Shown: positions 8,453 through 51,490 of the stretch, one piece after another
How positions within the stretch are numbered: position 1 is the first letter of the stretch
Layout of the letters: every line of letters starts with the position of its first letter
Notes under the pieces: model-generated
The model's database searches: none
The model's input: the letters and a program-made list of their open reading frames with translations, nothing else
What the model was told of the DNA's origin: nothing
Source: Bdellovibrionales bacterium
GTDB lineage: Bacteria; Bdellovibrionota; UBA1018
Direction of reading: 5' to 3'
NCBI GenBank assembly: GCA_018266355.1
Contig: JAFEAP010000029.1
Span: 400,909-464,908, forward strand
Length of the DNA: 64,000 bases
Translations under genes and position numbers: made by a program

Positions 8453-8581
8453 AGGGATCTCCGGGATATGAATTTCCGAGGCCCTTTAAGCGGATTCCGT
8501 GCCAGGCGGCGACGGCGTGGAAGGCCGAACGGCGCCCGGGAGGTGTCGAAGCTTTTTACAGGTGTGGCGAAGGGTGCCGGT

Positions 8582-8992
8582 TCAAATCCCGAGTCCGAGG
8601 GCCATATCGAACGTCATGTCGTTCGGTTCGCGGCGGATCACGATCGGCAGCCAGATCGTCATGCGCGCGTTCGGCGCGCTCGCGAGAGGATTCCCGAAGC
8701 TCGCGTCGATCTTCCGGATCTTGAATTCCTTCTCGGTGCGCACGACGGCTTTCACGAGCACGTCGGCGAGCTCGTGCGGATTCTGCTTCGCGTTTCCCGA
8801 GAGCGCGAGGAAGCCCGCGCCTTCGTTCGATTTCACTTCGCGGAAGAGCACGCGCGCTCCAGATTCCGCGCCGACCGCGCCCTCGACGCGTTTCGGGAGG
8901 CCGAGTTCGAGTTTATCCGCGGGAAAGCGCTCGTTCAGCTCGTCGATGAGCGCCGAGTGGGCGGCCTGGAGCACTTGGTTCCAAACGCTCAT
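8582..8992 (-). CDS. Hypothetical protein (136 aa), cotranscribed with the MsbA-like exporter
   Basis: ATG overlaps the stop of the ABC transporter gene by 4 nt (ATGA at 8989-8992), consistent with translational coupling. No family recognised. Confidence 0.5.
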   Translation of the reverse strand: MSVWNQVLQAAHSALIDELNERFPADKLELGLPKRVEGAVGAESGARVLFREVKSNEGAGFLALSGNAKQNPHELADVLVKAVVRTEKEFKIRKIDASFGNPLASAPNARMTIWLPIVIRREPNDMTFDMALGLGI

Positions 8993-42818: not shown

Positions 42819-45251
42819 TCAGCCGACGACGAAGTTCATGATCTTCCCCGGCACGAAGATGACCTTCTTCACGGTCTTTCCCTCGAGCTGGGCGACGACC
42901 TGCGGGATCTTCCGCGCTTCGGCTTCGACCGCCGTCTGATCGGCGCCGACCGGGACGGAGACGGTTCCGCGGGTCTTGCCGAGCACCTGGATCGCGACGG
43001 TGACGGAGTCCTCCGCGACGTACTTCGGGTCGAACGTCGGCCAGGTCGCGTAGGCCAGCGGCTCTTTTTCGCCGAGCCGTTCCCAGAGCTCCTCCGCGAT
43101 GTGCGGCGCGAACGGGCAGAGGAGCTGCACGAATGGCTTCAAGCACGCCCGCGGTTTCCGAGGCTCCTTCGTGAAGTGATTCACGAAGGTCATCATCTGC
43201 GAGATCGCGGTATTGAACCGGAGGTTTTCGATGTCGTCGGTGACTTTCTGGATCGTCTTGTGCGTGATCCGGAGGTCTTCCTCGGTCGGCGCCTCGTCCT
43301 TCACGATGAGCGTATCGACCGCATCTTCTTCTTTCCCTTCGAAAAAGATGCGCCAGGCGCGCGCGAGGAAGCGGTACGAACCCGCGATCGCGGTCGTCGA
43401 CCAGGGTTTATCGGCTTCGAGCGGGCCCATGAACATTTCGTACACGCGGAGCGTGTCCGCCCCGTATTCGTTCACGACGTCGTCGGGATTGATCACGTTC
43501 CCGCGCGACTTCGACATCTTCTCGCCGTCTTCGCCGAGAATCATTCCCTGGTGCACGAGGCGCTGGAAAGGTTCGTCGTGAGTGACGAGGCCGGCGTCGA
43601 AGAGGACTTTCGTCCAAAACCGCGCGTAAAGGAGGTGACCGACGGCGTGTTCGGGCCCTCCGAGGTAGAGGTCGACCGGCATCCAGTACTTCTCGGCTTC
43701 CTTCGACCACGGTTCTTTATCGTTCTTCGGGTCGCAGTACCGGAGGAAGTACCACGACGATCCGGCGGAACCCGGCATCGTGTCCGTCTCGCGGCGGAGT
43801 TTCTTCCCCGTTTTCGGGTCGGTCGTATGCAGCCACTCGGTGATCGCGGCGAGCGGCGATTCGCCGGTGCCCGTCGGTTCGTAGGACTTCACTTCCGGAA
43901 GCGAAACCGGCAGCAGGTCGTCGCCGACCGTCTCCCGCTTTCCGTCGTCGAACACGACGATCGGGAAGGGCTCGCCCCAGTACCGCTGACGGGAGAAGAG
44001 CCAGTCGCGGAGCTTGTAATTCACCGTCCGCTTTCCGCGACCTTCTTTCTCGATCGTCGCGATGACTTTTTCCTTCGCGTCCTTCGTCGAAAGCCCCGTG
44101 ATATAGCCCGAATTCACCGCTTTACCTTCGCCCGAAAAGCAACCTTCGATTTTCGTTCCGGGAGGCGATTCGACGACTTCCCGGATCGGGAGATCGAAGG
44201 CTTTCGCGAACTCGTGGTCGCGGTCGTCGTGTGCCGGAACGGCCATGATCGCGCCGGTGCCGTAACCCATCATCACGTAGTCGGCGATCCAGACCGGGAT
44301 TTTTTCGCCGTTCACCGGATTGATCGCGTACGTGCCCGAGAAGACGCCGGTCTTTTCCTTCGTCTGCTCCTGGCGTGCGATCTCGGACTTCCTTCCGGCG
44401 GCGGCGACGTATTCGTCGACGGCTTTCTTCTGGCCCGCGACGGTGAGCTTCGCCGTCAATGGATGCTCGGGCGCGAGCACGAGGTAAGTCGCGCCCCAGA
44501 GCGTGTCCGGGCGCGTGGTGAAAATCTCGATCTCTTCCTTCGAGTCGACCACGGCGAACCGCATTTGGAGGCCTTCCGAGCGTCCGATCCAGTTCCTCTG
44601 TAAATCTTTCGTGCTCTCCGGCCAGTTCACCTTGTCGAGGTCTTTCAGCAGTCGCTCGGCGTAGTCGGTGATCTTCAGCATCCACTGGTTCATCGGCACG
44701 CGGTGCACGGGATGGCCGCCGCGTTCGGATTTTCCGTCGACGACTTCGTCGTTCGCGAGCACGGTCTTCAGCGCCGGGCACCAGTTCACGGGCACTTCCT
44801 TTTTATAGGCGAGTCCGCGGTCGTAGAGGCGTTTGAAGATCCACTGGGTCCACTTGTAATAGGACGGCTCGGCGGTCGAGATCTCGCGGGACCAGTCGTA
44901 GGAGAAGCCGAGCATCTTGAGTTGCTTCGTGAAGTTCTTGATGGCGGCGTTCGTGGTGATCGCCGGGTGCGTGCCCGTTTGGATCGCGTGTTGTTCCGCG
45001 GGCAGGCCGAACGCGTCCCATCCCATCGGGTGGAGGACGTTGAAACCGCGCGTCCGTTTATAGCGCGCGAGGATGTCGGTCGCAGTGTAGCCCTCGGGGT
45101 GTCCGACGTGGAGGCCGCTGCCGGACGGGTAGGGGAACATGTCGAGCACGTAGTACTTCGGCTTCTTCGGATCGAGCACCGACTTGAACGTCTGCTTCTC
45201 GTCCCAGTGTTTCTGCCACTTCGCTTCGACTTGCTTGTGAGAATAAGCCAT
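42819..45251 (-). CDS. leuS: Leucine--tRNA ligase
   Basis: Starts MAYSHKQVEAKWQKHW. HIGH motif region (YPSGSGLHVGHPEGY), KMSKS motif. 810 aa. The upstream in-frame extension of ORF 42819..45863 is a non-coding artefact. Confidence 0.9.
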   Translation of the reverse strand: MAYSHKQVEAKWQKHWDEKQTFKSVLDPKKPKYYVLDMFPYPSGSGLHVGHPEGYTATDILARYKRTRGFNVLHPMGWDAFGLPAEQHAIQTGTHPAITTNAAIKNFTKQLKMLGFSYDWSREISTAEPSYYKWTQWIFKRLYDRGLAYKKEVPVNWCPALKTVLANDEVVDGKSERGGHPVHRVPMNQWMLKITDYAERLLKDLDKVNWPESTKDLQRNWIGRSEGLQMRFAVVDSKEEIEIFTTRPDTLWGATYLVLAPEHPLTAKLTVAGQKKAVDEYVAAAGRKSEIARQEQTKEKTGVFSGTYAINPVNGEKIPVWIADYVMMGYGTGAIMAVPAHDDRDHEFAKAFDLPIREVVESPPGTKIEGCFSGEGKAVNSGYITGLSTKDAKEKVIATIEKEGRGKRTVNYKLRDWLFSRQRYWGEPFPIVVFDDGKRETVGDDLLPVSLPEVKSYEPTGTGESPLAAITEWLHTTDPKTGKKLRRETDTMPGSAGSSWYFLRYCDPKNDKEPWSKEAEKYWMPVDLYLGGPEHAVGHLLYARFWTKVLFDAGLVTHDEPFQRLVHQGMILGEDGEKMSKSRGNVINPDDVVNEYGADTLRVYEMFMGPLEADKPWSTTAIAGSYRFLARAWRIFFEGKEEDAVDTLIVKDEAPTEEDLRITHKTIQKVTDDIENLRFNTAISQMMTFVNHFTKEPRKPRACLKPFVQLLCPFAPHIAEELWERLGEKEPLAYATWPTFDPKYVAEDSVTVAIQVLGKTRGTVSVPVGADQTAVEAEARKIPQVVAQLEGKTVKKVIFVPGKIMNFVVG

Positions 45252-45281
45252 GAAATTCAGTATAAAAGACGGAGGATCGGA

Positions 45282-45776
45282 ATGGAACCGTTTCAGCTGC
45301 CGAATGGCCCGGGATTGCAGGCGAAGTACGCCCCGAAGAGCATCTGCTTTGGATGCGGTCCGGCGAATCCGAAAGGCTTGAAGATCGATAGTCGCCCCGT
45401 CGAAGAGGGCGGCGCGCTCGAAGTGCGCGCGGAATGGAAACCCGAGTCCTATCACGAGGCGTTCCCGGGAATGCTGAACGGCGGGATCATCGGCGCGCTC
45501 CTCGATTGTCACTCGAACTGGACGGCCGCGTATCACTTGATGAAGAAGGGCGGGCTCGCCGAGCCGCCGTGCACAGTCACCGCCGATTTCCACGTCACTT
45601 TGAAACGCCCAACGCCGTCGAACGGGCCGGTCTACCTGCGGGCGAAGGTGGCCGAGTCGGGAGACGATCGCGCCGTGATTGACGCGACTCTCGAAGCCGG
45701 CGGTAAGGTCTGCGCGACGTGTCGCGGAACCTTCGTCGCCGTGAAACCCGGTCATCCGGCCTATCACCGCTGGTAA
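45282..45776 (+). CDS. Hotdog-fold thioesterase (PaaI/YbgC-like)
   Basis: GGAGG SD 6 nt upstream of ATG. 164 aa. Divergent from leuS. Confidence 0.6.
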   Translation: MEPFQLPNGPGLQAKYAPKSICFGCGPANPKGLKIDSRPVEEGGALEVRAEWKPESYHEAFPGMLNGGIIGALLDCHSNWTAAYHLMKKGGLAEPPCTVTADFHVTLKRPTPSNGPVYLRAKVAESGDDRAVIDATLEAGGKVCATCRGTFVAVKPGHPAYHRW

Positions 45777-45784
45777 GGAAAGGT

Positions 45785-46168
45785 ATGTCTCGAAACGATC
45801 GATTTTTCGCAGGACTGGCCGTCGCCGGCCTATTCGGGTTCGGAGCATGCGCCCACACCGCATCGACCGACGAGTACAATACCGGGGCGACGGAGGCGAT
45901 CCACGCGAAATCCTCCGAGTTTGAGCGGTGTTACGCGATCTTCGGAAACGGAAAGCCGATCGAGAGCTGGATCGAATTCTCCGCGAATTTCGACGGGGCC
46001 GTCCAATTCGCCGAAATCGCCGAATCGGAAATCCACGTCTCGAACCCGAAATTCGACGAATGCGCCCTCAAGGTCTTCCGCACGATCCAATTCCCCGAGG
46101 CCGATCCGAACGCCCGCGCCGCCTCCGGAAAATATCCGATCCGATTCCAGGGTTGGAATTCGCGCTGA
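45785..46168 (+). CDS. Small lipoprotein (paralog A)
   Basis: AAGGAAAGG SD. Lipobox GFGAC. Conserved C…F…C.L..F.T...PE motif shared with the next gene. Confidence 0.55.
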   Translation: MSRNDRFFAGLAVAGLFGFGACAHTASTDEYNTGATEAIHAKSSEFERCYAIFGNGKPIESWIEFSANFDGAVQFAEIAESEIHVSNPKFDECALKVFRTIQFPEADPNARAASGKYPIRFQGWNSR

Positions 46169-47633: not shown

Positions 47634-48755
47634 ATGACCTACACCGCGACCGAAGCGCCGAAGCTCGAGGGCAATCGCGAGAAGTTCCGACTCGAAGGGT
47701 TGCTCGCCGCCCAAGCGAAGACCCGAGAAGGACTCGCGAAGATCCGCGAAGCGCTCCGACCCGGGATGACCGAGCTCGAGATCCAACGCGCGGGCGAGGA
47801 GATCCTCCGGGGACTCGGCGCGAAGAAGAACTGGCACCGCGTGACGGTGCGGATCGACGCGGACACGCTGCTGAAATTCAACGCCCCCGCGAATCCGACG
47901 GCGAAACTCGAGACCTCGAGCATCGTCTTCCTCGATATCGGACCGGTCTTCGAGATCGACGGGGTCGAATACGAAGGCGACTTCGGCGACACGTTCGCGA
48001 TGGACGCGGACGCCGAGAAAAACCGGATGGTCGCCGTCTGCCGGACGCTCTTCGAGCGCGTCGCCGAGATCTGGCGCGAAGAGGAAATAACGGGCGTCGA
48101 GCTCTACCAGCGCGCGACCCGCGAAGCGGATCGGCTCGGCGTGGCCTTAAACCAGGAAGTCGACGGACATCGCGTCGGCGATTTCCCGCACCAGGTTTTT
48201 TTCCGCGGCGGCATCGGCGAACTCGAATTCAAGCCGGGTGCCGGGGTTTGGATCCTCGAGATCCAAATCCGGCACCCGACCCTTCCTTACGGCGCGTTCT
48301 ACGAGGACTCCCTCGTCTAACGCTTACCAGCTCACGCGATGACCCTCCTTTCGTTCGATGAGCTGCGGACGAAGACCCGGACCGACTTCACGGTGGAGCA
48401 CGATCGAGCCCTTCACGGAGAAGAGGCGGATCACATGCCCGCACCCGCGGAGCAGGAGCCAAAGCCAACTCCGTTTGGGCGGAGGTGGCGGAGGCGGGGA
48501 TTTTTTCGGCGGACGGTGCAGCTTCAAGAGTTCGAGATGAATTTCTTGGGAGCGGCGGTTTTCGTTTCGGGACTTTTCGACTTTAAGCAGTTCCATAGGT
48601 TCCTCAGTTTTACGTTTACGGACATTCGGGGAAATCGGGGGACGGTCAGACACGAGCCGGAACGACCGCCCGCCGCCTGGACGCGCGAGAACGCGTGGTC
48701 AGGGATGGCGAAGTGCGACGGTACGATCGTCCCGGCGATTCGGGAGCGCGAATGA
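47634..48755 (+). pseudogene. M24 (pita-bread) metallopeptidase-like gene interrupted by a single in-frame TAA (48318-48320)
   Basis: The N-part (47634..48320) has M24 motifs (FLDIGPVFEIDGVEYEGDFGDTF, GHRVGDF). The next ORF (48339..48755) is in the same frame. It has very high GC3, no SD, and carries the expected downstream E-H metal motif (FTVEHD). The two ORFs are separated only by TAA plus 5 codons. Confidence 0.5.
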
Positions 48756-48804
48756 CGAGCGTGCGCGAACCCGAAAGGGTTTAAAGCTTAGTTGCTAGGG
48801 GTTT

Positions 48805-48846
48805 GAAATCCTTCAGAAGGATTTCAGAGTCAGAAGGATTTCAGAG
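48805..48846. repeat. Palindrome GAAATCCTTC-a-GAAGGATTTC plus direct repeat of cagaaggatttcagag (x2)
   Basis: Seen directly at 48805-48825 (inverted repeat) and 48814-48829 / 48831-48846 (direct repeat). A related inverted repeat TTCTGAA-ag-TTCAGAA lies at 49097-49112. Candidate operator array for a dimeric DNA-binding protein. Confidence 0.5.
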
Positions 48847-48859
48847 ATAGAGCCGTGTT

Positions 48860-48979
48860 TCAGGCGGAGGCGAGTGGGAGATAAAGCCCAATCGATCCGG
48901 AGACGACGCCGCATTCAACAACGGACTCGGTGGTATCTCGTTCGGTACGGATTCCGTTCATTGCGATTTCAAACTGCAT
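48860..48979 (-). CDS. Candidate 39-aa small ORF (MQFEIAMNGIRTERDTTESVVECGVVSGSIGLYLPLASA) with strong SD
   Basis: AAAGGAGG 5 nt upstream of ATG. Lies within the AT-rich 530-nt intergenic region. No homology recognisable. Confidence 0.3.
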   Translation of the reverse strand: MQFEIAMNGIRTERDTTESVVECGVVSGSIGLYLPLASA

Positions 48980-49284
48980 GGTCGCCTCCTTTCGAGGGGA
49001 TTTTTCGATCCGGAAGATCCCGAATCAATAATCTTAAGATAAAGGTCTTTCGAGCGGAACACAAGCAATCGCCCGGAAAAACCGCATGATTTGATTTTCT
49101 GAAAGTTCAGAAGCGGGAATGATCGAGCAATCGCTATTCGGAAACGAGGCGAATCGTTCGGGATGCGTTTGACGCGGGAGGCGGGGTGGGAAAGATCTCC
49201 TAAATCGACCCGCCTCGGTTGCCAAACTCTCCCGGCCTCGCTATCTGAGGGGACACTTCAAATTCACCTCAAAGGGGGGAAACT

Positions 49285-50676
49285 ATGATTTTGAAACTCG
49301 TCCAATTGGGAGTTCTGGGAATCGCGCTGGCGACGATCTCGGCTCCGACCGCGCAAGCGGCGGCTTTCGTCGATCCGATGCTCGCGAACGCGTCCGGAAA
49401 GACCACCGTCATCATCACGTTCAAGGACCGCACGCGCCTGCCGGATACCCGCCGCTCGCTCGTCTCCTACTCGTCGCTGCGTCGTGCGCTCGAAGCGAAC
49501 GCGCGCGCGAGCCAACAAGACGTCGTGAAGATGCTGAACTCCGAACGCCGCATTTCCGGCAACGTCCGCTTCACGCCGTTCTGGATCGTGAACGCGATGG
49601 TCGCCCAACTCCCGGCCGAGCAGATCTCGAAGCTCCGGAATCACCCGGACGTTCGCGCGATCTACGCGAACCGCGAAGTCCACCTCATCGAAGATTACCG
49701 CGGCCACGCGCGCGAGCGCCTCGGTGACCCGTTCACCTACGGTCTCTCGATCATGAACATCCCGGAACTTCGCAAGGAAGTTCCGAAGGCGGACGGCCAA
49801 GGCGTGGTCGTCGGCATCATCGATACCGGCGTCGACGCCTCCCACCCGGACCTGAAGGGGAAGGTCATCGGTTTCCGCGACTTCGCGGGCAACCGGAAAG
49901 AGCCTTACGACGATCACGGCCACGGCACGCACGTGTCGGGCACGATCGCCGGCGGAAACGCTTCGGGCACCGCCATCGGCGTCGCTCCGAACGCGAAGAT
50001 CATCATGGCGAAGGCGTTCTCGGCGAGCGGCGGATCGAGCACCGCGACCCTCCTCTCCGCGATGCAGTGGATCGCCGATCCGGACGGAAATCCGGCGACG
50101 AAGGACCAGCCGATGCTCGTCAGCAACTCCTGGGGCGGTGGACCGCCGTCTCCGTCGACCGATCCGGCCGACGAGATGTTCTGCCAAGCCGTTTCCTCGT
50201 GGTTGAAGCTCGGGATCTTCCCGGTTTTCGCCGCGGGTAACTCCGGCCCTCGCGCCGGTTCGGTCGGCAGCCCGGGCGCTTGCCCGCAATCCTACGCCAT
50301 CGGCGCGACGGACGCGAACGACACGGTCGCTTCGTTCAGCTCGCGCGGACCGGTGGTTTGGAAGACCGGCACGCTCCAAAAGCCGAACGTTTCGGCTCCC
50401 GGAGTGAACGTCCTCTCGGCCGCTCCCGGCGGGAAGTACCAGACGATGTCCGGTACCTCGATGGCGACTCCGCACGTCGCGGGTCTCCTGACCCTGATCT
50501 ATCAGGTGATGCCGAACATCTCGATCGACGACGCCGCGAAGCTCGTGGCGAAGACGACGAAGGACCTCGGACCGACGGGCTCGGACCCGGATTACGGCGC
50601 CGGCCGCGTCGACGCGCTCTCGGCGGTGAAGGCGGCCCAGACCTTCCGCGCCCGGGCGATGCACTCGTCCCGTTAA
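49285..50676 (+). CDS. Secreted subtilisin-like serine protease (S8) with N-terminal I9 inhibitor propeptide
   Basis: Signal peptide, propeptide, catalytic motifs GIIDTGVD, HGTHVSG, GTSMATPHVAG. 463 aa. Confidence 0.85.
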   Translation: MILKLVQLGVLGIALATISAPTAQAAAFVDPMLANASGKTTVIITFKDRTRLPDTRRSLVSYSSLRRALEANARASQQDVVKMLNSERRISGNVRFTPFWIVNAMVAQLPAEQISKLRNHPDVRAIYANREVHLIEDYRGHARERLGDPFTYGLSIMNIPELRKEVPKADGQGVVVGIIDTGVDASHPDLKGKVIGFRDFAGNRKEPYDDHGHGTHVSGTIAGGNASGTAIGVAPNAKIIMAKAFSASGGSSTATLLSAMQWIADPDGNPATKDQPMLVSNSWGGGPPSPSTDPADEMFCQAVSSWLKLGIFPVFAAGNSGPRAGSVGSPGACPQSYAIGATDANDTVASFSSRGPVVWKTGTLQKPNVSAPGVNVLSAAPGGKYQTMSGTSMATPHVAGLLTLIYQVMPNISIDDAAKLVAKTTKDLGPTGSDPDYGAGRVDALSAVKAAQTFRARAMHSSR

Positions 50677-50736
50677 TCGTTACCCGAACGGCCCGGTTCC
50701 CCACTCGGGAGCCGGGCCTTTTTTCTAGGAGTCCCG

Positions 50737-51486
50737 ATGAAACACCGAATCCCGATCGCCGCTCTTTTACTTTCCTCGCTCCCGGCTCTCGCCTTCGCCG
50801 CGTCCCCGCCGATCGAAGAGGTCGATCTCGGATCGTGTTGGGTGCAGGACGGCTCCGCCACCCAGGGCGCTCCTTTCTTCAAGATCGCCTCGTTCTCGAT
50901 CGGAAGCCCGATCACGGCCCAGCTTTACCTCGATCCGGCTCCCGAAGGGGCGACGGTCACGAAAGCGGTGAAGGCGGCTCTCCTGGAGGCCCTGCCCGGG
51001 GCGAAGGGTACCCTCGCTTATTCGCTTGCGATCCACTGTTCGTCGAGCCAAGCCATGCCGCTGATTTCGGCGACCGTCGACGGCGAGAACTTCTGTCTCC
51101 AGGGCCGGCTCACCTCCGGCGACAATCAAATCCAGATCGAGCGCGTCCTGCCGGACCCGCTCCGCCGGCCGAACGAGGTTTGTCGCGGAGTGAACCCGGG
51201 CGTGCTCCTCTTCGGATTGAAGGATAAATCGAAGGCCGCCGCCGCCGAAACCGCGCTCCTTAAGCGTGAAGGCGCGCTGATCGAGAAGATCGAGCGGCTC
51301 GACGCGATCGGCGTCCTGATCCTTCGCCTGAAGAAGTCGGAGTACTACCGTGAAGCAGCCGCGAAAGCGCGGATCGAGAAGGACGCCCGTCTCGCGGCTT
51401 ACCGCGGTTCGCTCGCGTTCGACGCGATCACGCTGACCGTCGGTGCGCCGGTCGAGCTCTGGAAAGACTCGATCTCGATCCGGTGA
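50737..51486 (+). CDS. Secreted hypothetical protein (249 aa)
   Basis: Signal peptide MKHRIPIAALLLSSLPALAFA. Coherent frame. Confidence 0.55.
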   Translation: MKHRIPIAALLLSSLPALAFAASPPIEEVDLGSCWVQDGSATQGAPFFKIASFSIGSPITAQLYLDPAPEGATVTKAVKAALLEALPGAKGTLAYSLAIHCSSSQAMPLISATVDGENFCLQGRLTSGDNQIQIERVLPDPLRRPNEVCRGVNPGVLLFGLKDKSKAAAAETALLKREGALIEKIERLDAIGVLILRLKKSEYYREAAAKARIEKDARLAAYRGSLAFDAITLTVGAPVELWKDSISIR

Positions 51487-51490
51487 TCGC

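Follow-up and report, generated by a model that had tools for sequence, protein, structure and literature searches.

The window analysed here is a 64-kb stretch of DNA from an uncultured Bdellovibrionales bacterium. The region under study (48756-49284) lies directly upstream of the gene of a secreted S8 subtilase and contains two palindromes, direct repeats and, on the minus strand, a 39-codon open reading frame (ORF) preceded by a Shine-Dalgarno (SD) sequence. The first-pass annotation described these features in an AT-rich gap, and interpreted them as a regulatory hub or a small peptide linked to the protease. All the listed features are confirmed in the sequence, and the small ORF and the regulatory DNA are both real, but they were assigned to the wrong partner. 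The adjacency of the micro-ORF and the S8 protease is unique to this species; the micro-ORF is paired instead with a protein of 79-90 aa encoded downstream of it on the same strand. A small transcription unit on the minus strand would begin in this region, and it is shared by a clade of uncultured Bdellovibrionales with high GC content. This unit is probably a conserved, lineage-restricted operon with its own promoter, the micro-ORF as leader or first cistron, spacer hairpins that act at the RNA level and the gene of the small protein.

The GC content of the region is 51% and falls to 45% between 48980 and 49131. Across the sections of the region it goes down to 45-54%, versus 62% in the whole window. 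Two further assemblies of the same organism carry the region with 100% identity. One of them covers 48830-49284 only and cuts through the first palindrome. This assembly, which starts at 48830, derives from a slightly different strain, and its version of the 249-aa protein encoded after the subtilase is 99.6% identical to that of the window.

The neighbouring M24 peptidase gene (47634-48320) served as the anchor for the relatives. Six syntenic relatives are available, with M24 sequences 65-82% identical to that of the window: L046 (82%), L042 (79%), L043/L044 (74%), L045 (73%), L047 (67%) and L048 (65%). In L042, L043/L044 and L048 the genes follow a common backbone, namely LeuRS, RsgA, M24, the module, a variable slot, acyl-CoA dehydrogenase (ACAD), RsmB and DHODH, and the shorter contigs L045 and L046 keep parts of this gene order. 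Minus-strand alignments of the variable stretch reveal the module in five of the six relatives, as in the window. The order of its components on the minus strand is a 44-nt upstream block (block A), TTG-N19-TATnnT, a 5' stem-loop, the SD and ATG, the micro-ORF, a structured spacer and the protein of 79-90 aa. In L047 (5688-6066) the flanking genes and a protein with a lysine-rich tail are kept, and the micro-ORF and the small protein are both missing. Thus the two small genes occur, and are gained or lost, as a pair. All the module comparisons below use six sequences, those of the window, L042, L043, L045, L046 and L048, and homology with the relatives ends at about 49131.

The left boundary of the gap, placed at 48756, is wrong because the plus-strand ORF of 138 aa that ends at 48755 is spurious. 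This ORF (48339-48755) was rejected as a gene, since relatives do not keep its frame: L042 interrupts it with a stop, and in L046 and L043 it yields no ORF of full length. The antisense 90-aa ORF is the conserved gene. The true protein-free stretches are 48597-48859 and 48980-49284. The coordinates of the module and of the adjoining genes are collected in Table 1.

Table 1. Features of the module and of the adjoining cargo genes (positions in the window).
Feature	Position	Strand	Details
Block A, 44-nt conserved block 5' of the candidate promoter	49085..49128	-	contains the TTCTGAA/TTCAGAA palindrome (49097-49112)
Candidate sigma-70-type promoter	49036..49064	-	-35 TTGTGT (49064->49059); 17-nt spacer; -10 TATCTT (49041->49036)
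Stem-loop at the 5' end of the predicted transcript	49005..49028	-	fold of about -10 to -13 kcal/mol in five of six sequences
SD region and start codon	48977..48995	-	CTCGAAAGGAGGCGACCATG
Micro-ORF, 39 codons	48860..48979	-	peptide MQFEIAMNGIRTERDTTESVVECGVVSGSIGLYLPLASA
hp1, palindrome and tandem duplication	48804..48846	-	starts 14 nt past the micro-ORF stop
hp2', conserved interrupted stem	48739..48775	-	RNAalifold; G.U pairs and some compensatory changes; absent from L045
hp3, long conserved stem-loop directly 5' of the small-protein gene	48656..48736	-	14-bp stem
Basic, proline-rich protein, 90 aa	48324..48596	-	MBS1963695.1 (annotated as hypothetical); conserved ORF
Upstream region of the subtilase, 153 nt	49132..49284	+	part of the inserted cargo, outside the module
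S8 subtilase, secreted	49285..50676	+	Pfam Peptidase_S8 and Inhibitor_I9
249-aa protein	50737..51486	+	N-terminal signal-like sequence; no Pfam domain; cargo gene

The AT-rich DNA upstream of the micro-ORF holds up as a conserved regulatory region, in which block A, TTG/TATnnT, the SD and the ATG are invariant or nearly so. This conservation stands in contrast to the synonymous sites of the adjacent ORFs, where the proportion of differences (pS) between the window and each relative is 0.44-0.77. Block A is 74-81% identical to each of the five relatives, with 23 of its 43 columns invariant. According to nhmmer it is present in a single copy per locus and at a constant position, and no other intergenic site of the window carries it. 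Its likely role is to bind a transcription factor or the alpha subunit of RNA polymerase.

The palindrome inside block A, TTCTGAAAGTTCAGAA, occurs once in the window. Only its first half, CTTCTGA, is invariant, while the relatives have TTGATGA or TTCATGA in place of the second half, and several of them carry a different small dyad (TTGAT-N3-ATCAA) at this site. The TTCTGAA/TTCAGAA palindrome is thus a local variant within a conserved block, and the palindrome as such is not the conserved unit. As the other palindromic element, hp1, is absent from the relatives, the idea of the palindromes as conserved operators does not stand. The half-site GAAGGATTTC is not repeated at other promoters of the window, where its only two further exact copies (13535 and 53707) are both inside long ORFs. 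Neither the 17-mer repeated in hp1 nor TTCNGAA recurs at other intergenic sites in the window. TTCNGAA is not enriched in the window (22 found versus 32 expected), and three of the four window copies of TTCWGAA are in this region.

Downstream of block A, all six sequences have an invariant TTG and an invariant TATnnT, with a fixed hexamer spacing of 17 nt. The 17-19 nt that separate TTG from TATnnT are only 16-47% identical to the window. We infer from this pattern that TTGTGT-N17-TATCTT is a sigma-70-type promoter. The sequence was also read for sigma-54 and FliA-type promoters, and for both no match with correct spacing was found. The next element is a hairpin that begins 7-9 nt past the -10. 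The sequences of its stem differ among five lineages, and in L048 the hairpin is cleanly deleted. This predicted hairpin is placed as expected for the 5'-terminal stem-loop of a transcript.

The micro-ORF follows. The sequence AAGGAGG lies 5 nt upstream of its ATG, and CGAAAGGAG and the ATG are invariant columns in the six sequences. Near the SD, the CCTC/GAGG of the window and L048 is exchanged for TCTC/GAGA in the other four sequences, an exchange compatible with a small hairpin that would mask the SD. By itself the SD says little: the window contains 38 copies of AGGAGG, most of them within genes, and about five of the 38 are accompanied by a start codon and a spurious ORF at least 30 codons long. 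From the homologous ATG, the frame is open in every sequence, for 39, 29, 27, 30, 31 and 33 codons (120, 90, 84, 93, 96 and 102 nt from ATG to stop), with a homologous G(C/T)C-TGA as its end each time. In most sequences both alternative frames are shut within 10 codons, and the chance that non-coding DNA stays open for at least 27 codons is, by our own estimate, about 0.3 per lineage.

The encoded peptides have the consensus M.F..TKN.GI.S..TG[IV][IV]S..V..LRPL.A. The ratio of nonsynonymous to synonymous changes (dN/dS) is 0.24 for L043 versus L045, the closest and least saturated pair. Comparisons among the four peptides that resemble each other most (those of the window, L046, L043 and L045) give 0.24-0.54. 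Gene callers report the micro-ORF in three assemblies. With its invariant SD and ATG and a frame kept in six of six sequences, the SD-preceded ORF noticed in the first-pass annotation is a real conserved small ORF and, as these comparisons suggest, very probably a translated small gene. Its role would be either that of a leader ORF or that of a first cistron with a peptide functional in its own right.

The partner of the micro-ORF is the gene of the basic, proline-rich protein, which is convergent with the M24 peptidase gene. Its frame stays open in the six sequences and encodes 79-90 aa, and the indels are multiples of three. The proteins of the relatives are 47-60% identical to that of the window, and the dN/dS values are 0.18-0.40. 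These values indicate purifying selection on the small protein and support the 90-aa minus-strand ORF as a real gene. The GC content at its third codon positions (GC3) is approximately 0.61 and resembles that of a shadow frame. Searches of Pfam, NCBIfam, PADLOC and PDB gave no match for this protein and the PHROGs match is insignificant, with nothing below E = 0.03. The AlphaFold model (pLDDT 57) has two helices only and is too low in confidence for a fold search. The protein of the window contains seven consecutive prolines (PPPPPPP, codons 48473-48493 on the minus strand), and most relatives have PPP. The translation of the seven-proline run would be expected to need elongation factor P (EF-P).

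The spacer between the stop of the micro-ORF and the start of the small protein measures 263 nt in the window and 156-284 nt across the six sequences. The two structures conserved in it are hp2' and hp3. The first one, hp2', is supported by single-sequence folds and shares a GGG with a small AACCC-TTTC-GGGTT hairpin; the GGG common to hp2 and hp2' corresponds to one alternative pairing, about 90 nt beyond the stop codon of the micro-ORF. The second one, hp3, lies inside the stretch previously taken as coding sequence and ends approximately 35-60 nt before the next ATG. In its alignment 84 of 84 cells are paired, and five of the 14 pairs change on both sides, that is, they covary. No shuffle out of 500 reaches any of the five measures employed, and registers slid along the alignment pair 31-49% of the cells. 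The hairpin of the window folds at -48 kcal/mol. Nine G.U cells of hp3 would be A.C mismatches if read on the plus strand. The G.U pairs fit the minus strand only, and therefore the structure of hp3 is selected in the minus-strand RNA. The pairing pattern shows the spacer to be transcribed, by all appearances, in the sense of the two small ORFs.

In the operon proposed here, block A (49128->49085) and then the sigma-70-like promoter TTGTGT-N17-TATCTT would drive the unit. The transcript would open with the 5' stem-loop, followed by the strong SD and the translated 39-codon micro-ORF, which would serve as first cistron or leader ORF. Subsequently, the hairpins of the 263-nt spacer (hp1, hp2' and hp3) may act on RNA stability, processing or translation, and in this way set the output of the downstream 90-aa protein. 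This reading builds on conservation, ORF retention, covariation and synteny, which are observed directly in the alignments; the transcription start, the co-transcription of the two ORFs and the action of the hairpins are inferred from them.

Several points weigh against this proposal. The comparisons rest on just six sequences from about five lineages, and the transcription start and the co-transcription have the standing given above. The promoter-like signature matches the sigma-70 consensus at 7 of 12 positions, and a promoter scan makes no call. The dN/dS of the micro-ORF is near 1 for the distant pairs, in which the sites are saturated and the peptide alignments weak. Its GC3 is 0.42-0.72 across the six sequences (0.57 in the window), versus about 0.8 in ordinary genes. 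None of the hairpins hp1, hp2' and hp3 is followed by a U-tract, so that no defined mechanism of attenuation can be named. The searches with the micro-ORF peptide against 5.8 billion proteins (with a one-residue pad to 40 aa) and against 1.84 billion representatives returned only the self-match. However, the homologues of 29 aa in L042 and of 33 aa in L048 are present in the protein collection, yet neither search returned them. The empty searches thus do not argue against coding, because the homologous peptides are too short and too diverged to score. The peptides have no Pfam match either.

Some of these points could also be explained by a non-coding regulatory RNA, be it a small RNA or an extended, structured 5' leader belonging to the small-protein gene; the ORF would in that case be incidental or marginally translated. 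Block A, the 5' untranslated region and hp3 are better conserved than the peptide, the spacer structure covaries, and both the atypical GC3 and the dN/dS near 1 in distant pairs would be expected from such an RNA. On the other hand, the SD and ATG never vary and are optimally spaced, and the frame stays open in the six sequences between two homologous anchors, whereas the other frames are mostly closed within 10 codons. The common peptide motifs and the dN/dS of 0.24 in the least saturated pair also argue for translation, and no Rfam family matches hp3 or the remaining sequence. The scan of 48300-49500 on both strands with Rfam 15 (E <= 1) retrieved no family at the gathering threshold. Its sole match, CRISPR-DR54, scores 22.5 bits against a threshold of 39 (E = 0.1) and was treated as chance. 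A non-coding RNA is, on balance, a rather unlikely explanation, although it survives better than the two others considered below.

The first hairpin of the spacer, hp1, differs from hp2' and hp3 in its conservation. It is composed of the palindrome TGAAATCCTTC-A-GAAGGATTTCA at 48804-48826 and of an overlapping exact 17-nt tandem duplication (TCAGAAGGATTTCAGAG twice) at 48813-48846. These elements had been described as 10-bp arms and 16-nt repeats; they are real, and slightly longer than stated, with 11-nt arms that are 100% complementary and 17-nt repeats. The 17-mer has four matches with up to three mismatches in the window, against 0.05 expected, and three of the four are inside hp1. Due to the duplication, one left arm stands opposite two right arms. 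The minus-strand fold reaches -25.6 kcal/mol (z = -3.7). In every relative hp1 corresponds to an alignment gap within the variable first part of the spacer, and some relatives have unrelated hairpins at this position, such as GAUCUGAA-UUCGU-UUCAGGUC in L048. The element looks like a species-specific enlargement, by the 17-nt duplication, of a variable first spacer hairpin.

The stability of hp1 and its location 14 nt past the stop codon raise the alternative that it ends a transcript with the micro-ORF as its single cistron, or that it terminates two convergent units from both sides, with the small protein expressed from a promoter of its own. The same 21-nt palindrome is found in unrelated metagenome contigs, some of them with T-runs and terminator-like. 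In the window, by contrast, hp1 has no T-run on either strand (minus-strand flank AAACCCC, plus-strand flank GAGTCAG), a terminator scan makes no call, and the element is absent from the relatives. The downstream spacer has covarying minus-strand structure, so transcription evidently continues, and the 35-60 nt from hp3 to the ATG leave little room for a separate promoter. Termination at hp1 is consequently improbable, somewhat more so than a non-coding RNA.

Outside the organism, a metagenome scan for a GAATCCTTC-type pattern, GAAATCCTTCNGAAGGATTTC, retrieved seven contigs, all of which were set aside as unrelated generic hairpins. The exact 21-nt palindrome GAAATCCTTCNGAAGGATTTC is in the JGI metagenome contigs L035-L041, of which L039-L041 seem to be one locus with a T-rich, terminator-like tail.

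The other side of the module is occupied by genes that vary among the relatives. In the window the slot (49132-51490) is filled by the S8 gene with its leader region of 153 nt and by the gene of the 249-aa protein. In L042 (8389) it is empty and the ACAD stop abuts block A. In L043 (8541-10834) it includes a lysine-tail protein (115 aa, 8541-8888) and HNH and Rce1-like genes, and in L045 (1701-2027) and L048 (6402-6719) a single protein of 105-108 aa with a lysine-rich tail. The slot between the 3' end of ACAD and block A appears, from these contents, to be a variable hotspot for cargo genes.

The five module-bearing relatives have no S8 (Peptidase_S8) gene within the 1.3-7 kb covered on that side. 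The segment 49132-49284 has no similarity to any compared locus save the assemblies of the same organism, and because homology with the relatives stops at about 49131, the leader region of the S8 gene belongs to the cargo. The four closest S8 homologues fetched (65-67% identical) reside in four different, unrelated contexts, and their loci have no match to the upstream region of the module. The S8 gene was also tried as a synteny anchor and rejected: neither the 24 loci of a genome scan, with identities of up to 56%, nor the four closest homologues had a context, a micro-ORF or upstream DNA in common with the window. No repeats were found flanking the S8 cargo in the window. Since the module-bearing relatives lack an S8 gene, the S8 leader is unlike other sequences and the slot is variable, the adjacency of peptide and protease is an accident of insertion. 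The subtilase, its leader and the 249-aa gene appear to be a later, lineage-specific insertion, functionally unconnected to the micro-ORF.

The remaining alternative, which ties both elements to the secreted subtilase with the palindromes as operators and the micro-ORF as its precursor or leader (a divergent hub or a precursor-protease pair of the kind known for ribosomally synthesised and post-translationally modified peptides, RiPPs), draws on the divergent arrangement of the two genes 305 nt apart in the window and on the processing of ribosomal peptides by S8 proteases of the LanP type, but it is contradicted by the synteny, by the contexts of the closest S8 homologues, by the end of homology before the S8 leader, by the lack of palindrome conservation and by neighbours without modification enzymes, and is very improbable. 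The Pfam neighbours are LeuRS, RsgA, the M24 peptidase, ACAD and RsmB, and none of the RiPP-type modification enzymes looked for in Pfam (LanB/C/M, radical SAM, YcaO and similar enzymes) is among them.

Within the leader of the subtilase, TTGCCA-N17-TATCTG (49221-49249) is a possible promoter of this gene, proposed with low confidence. At 49167-49227 on the plus strand, the same leader region also has a perfect stem of 8 bp (GAGGCGGG/CCCGCCTC) that encloses a loop of 23 nt, and the fold of this stem (z = -1.1) is not significant against shuffles. The lysine-tail protein of the slot (105-115 aa) is located at 1701-2027 in L045, 8541-8888 in L043, 6402-6719 in L048 and 5703-6032 in L047. It has the motifs RYEFSNE.G.LEGGDIFE.PS and GLLKNYGMT, a poly-lysine C-terminus and no Pfam match on record, and tblastn did not find it in the 64-kb window. 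On the short contig L046 an unannotated plus-strand ORF comes right after block A, and its translation may be RsmB-like. Further along the backbone, the mechanically called LeuRS ORF of the window (42819-45863, minus strand, 1014 aa) is over-extended at its 5' end: its Pfam domains start at residue 215, and the start chosen by the gene caller on the contig of the same organism (L001) is near position 45251 of the window, which gives a calculated length of about 810 aa.

Searches of the phage and plasmid collections yielded no match, and the literature search retrieved nothing specific to the module. A more specific proposal is that the micro-ORF, the covarying hp2' and hp3 and block A constitute an undescribed cis-regulatory device controlling the proline-rich small protein of a presumably predatory Bdellovibrionales clade. 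In such a device, the ribosome traffic on a translated leader could remodel the spacer RNA, or the small protein could bind an RNA operator, and the micro-peptide might act in trans. This proposal is tentative and clearly less probable than the operon as such.

The operon reading removes a tempting inference, the pairing of peptide and protease, and corrects the local annotation, in which the plus-strand ORF of 138 aa is spurious and the minus-strand ORFs of 39 and 90 aa are real. It defines a compact, testable unit of small genes with an unusually conserved promoter region and a covarying RNA stem, in a little-studied lineage for which almost nothing is known on small proteins or RNA regulation. 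Should the module be regulatory, it would give access to the way in which uncultured Bdellovibrionales control their genes; if not, it simply adds another small-protein operon restricted to one lineage.

The module was compared with several known systems. RiPP precursors with a LanP-type subtilase also combine a small peptide gene with an adjoining secreted S8 protease. The adjacency is, however, not conserved here, modification, transport and immunity genes are missing, and the peptide has no core rich in Cys, Ser or Thr. Intrinsic (Rho-independent) terminators have, as hp1, a perfect stem just past a stop codon, but hp1 lacks the U-tract, is of moderate GC content and is not conserved. Stem-loops at the 5' terminus stabilise mRNA, as in the 5' untranslated region of ompA. 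The predicted hairpin of the module is likewise placed a few nucleotides from the presumed transcript start and is kept despite sequence change, although L048 is without it and the start site is itself a prediction.

The module also has features in common with leader or upstream ORFs (the trpL attenuators, and the mgtL and ermCL upstream ORFs). An SD-preceded ORF of 27-39 codons is followed on its own strand by a structured RNA and then by a gene, and the two genes occur together in five relatives and are jointly absent in L047. As in trpL, a short ORF lies upstream on the same strand, 156-284 nt before the small-protein gene in the six sequences. On the other hand, the peptide alignment has no conserved repeated residue that would correspond to a run of regulatory codons for one amino acid, and hp1, hp2' and hp3 do not provide a terminator hairpin and U-tract with an antiterminator overlapping the end of the leader ORF. 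Unlike in these systems, the conserved stems are at least 100 nt past the micro-ORF stop, and the ORF ends well before the downstream start. Some conservation of the micro-ORF peptide is also unusual for pure leader peptides.

Bicistronic small-protein operons were found by ribosome profiling (Ribo-seq) in many bacteria (see the reviews PMC10723866 and PMC11955535). The module has the same traits, namely two tiny ORFs that belong to no family, a strong SD-type start and restriction to a single lineage. It differs from them in the unusually good conservation of the promoter-proximal DNA and of the intercistronic RNA structure. Taken as a whole, the unit belongs among the common small operons that are specific to one lineage, of the small-protein or upstream-ORF type.

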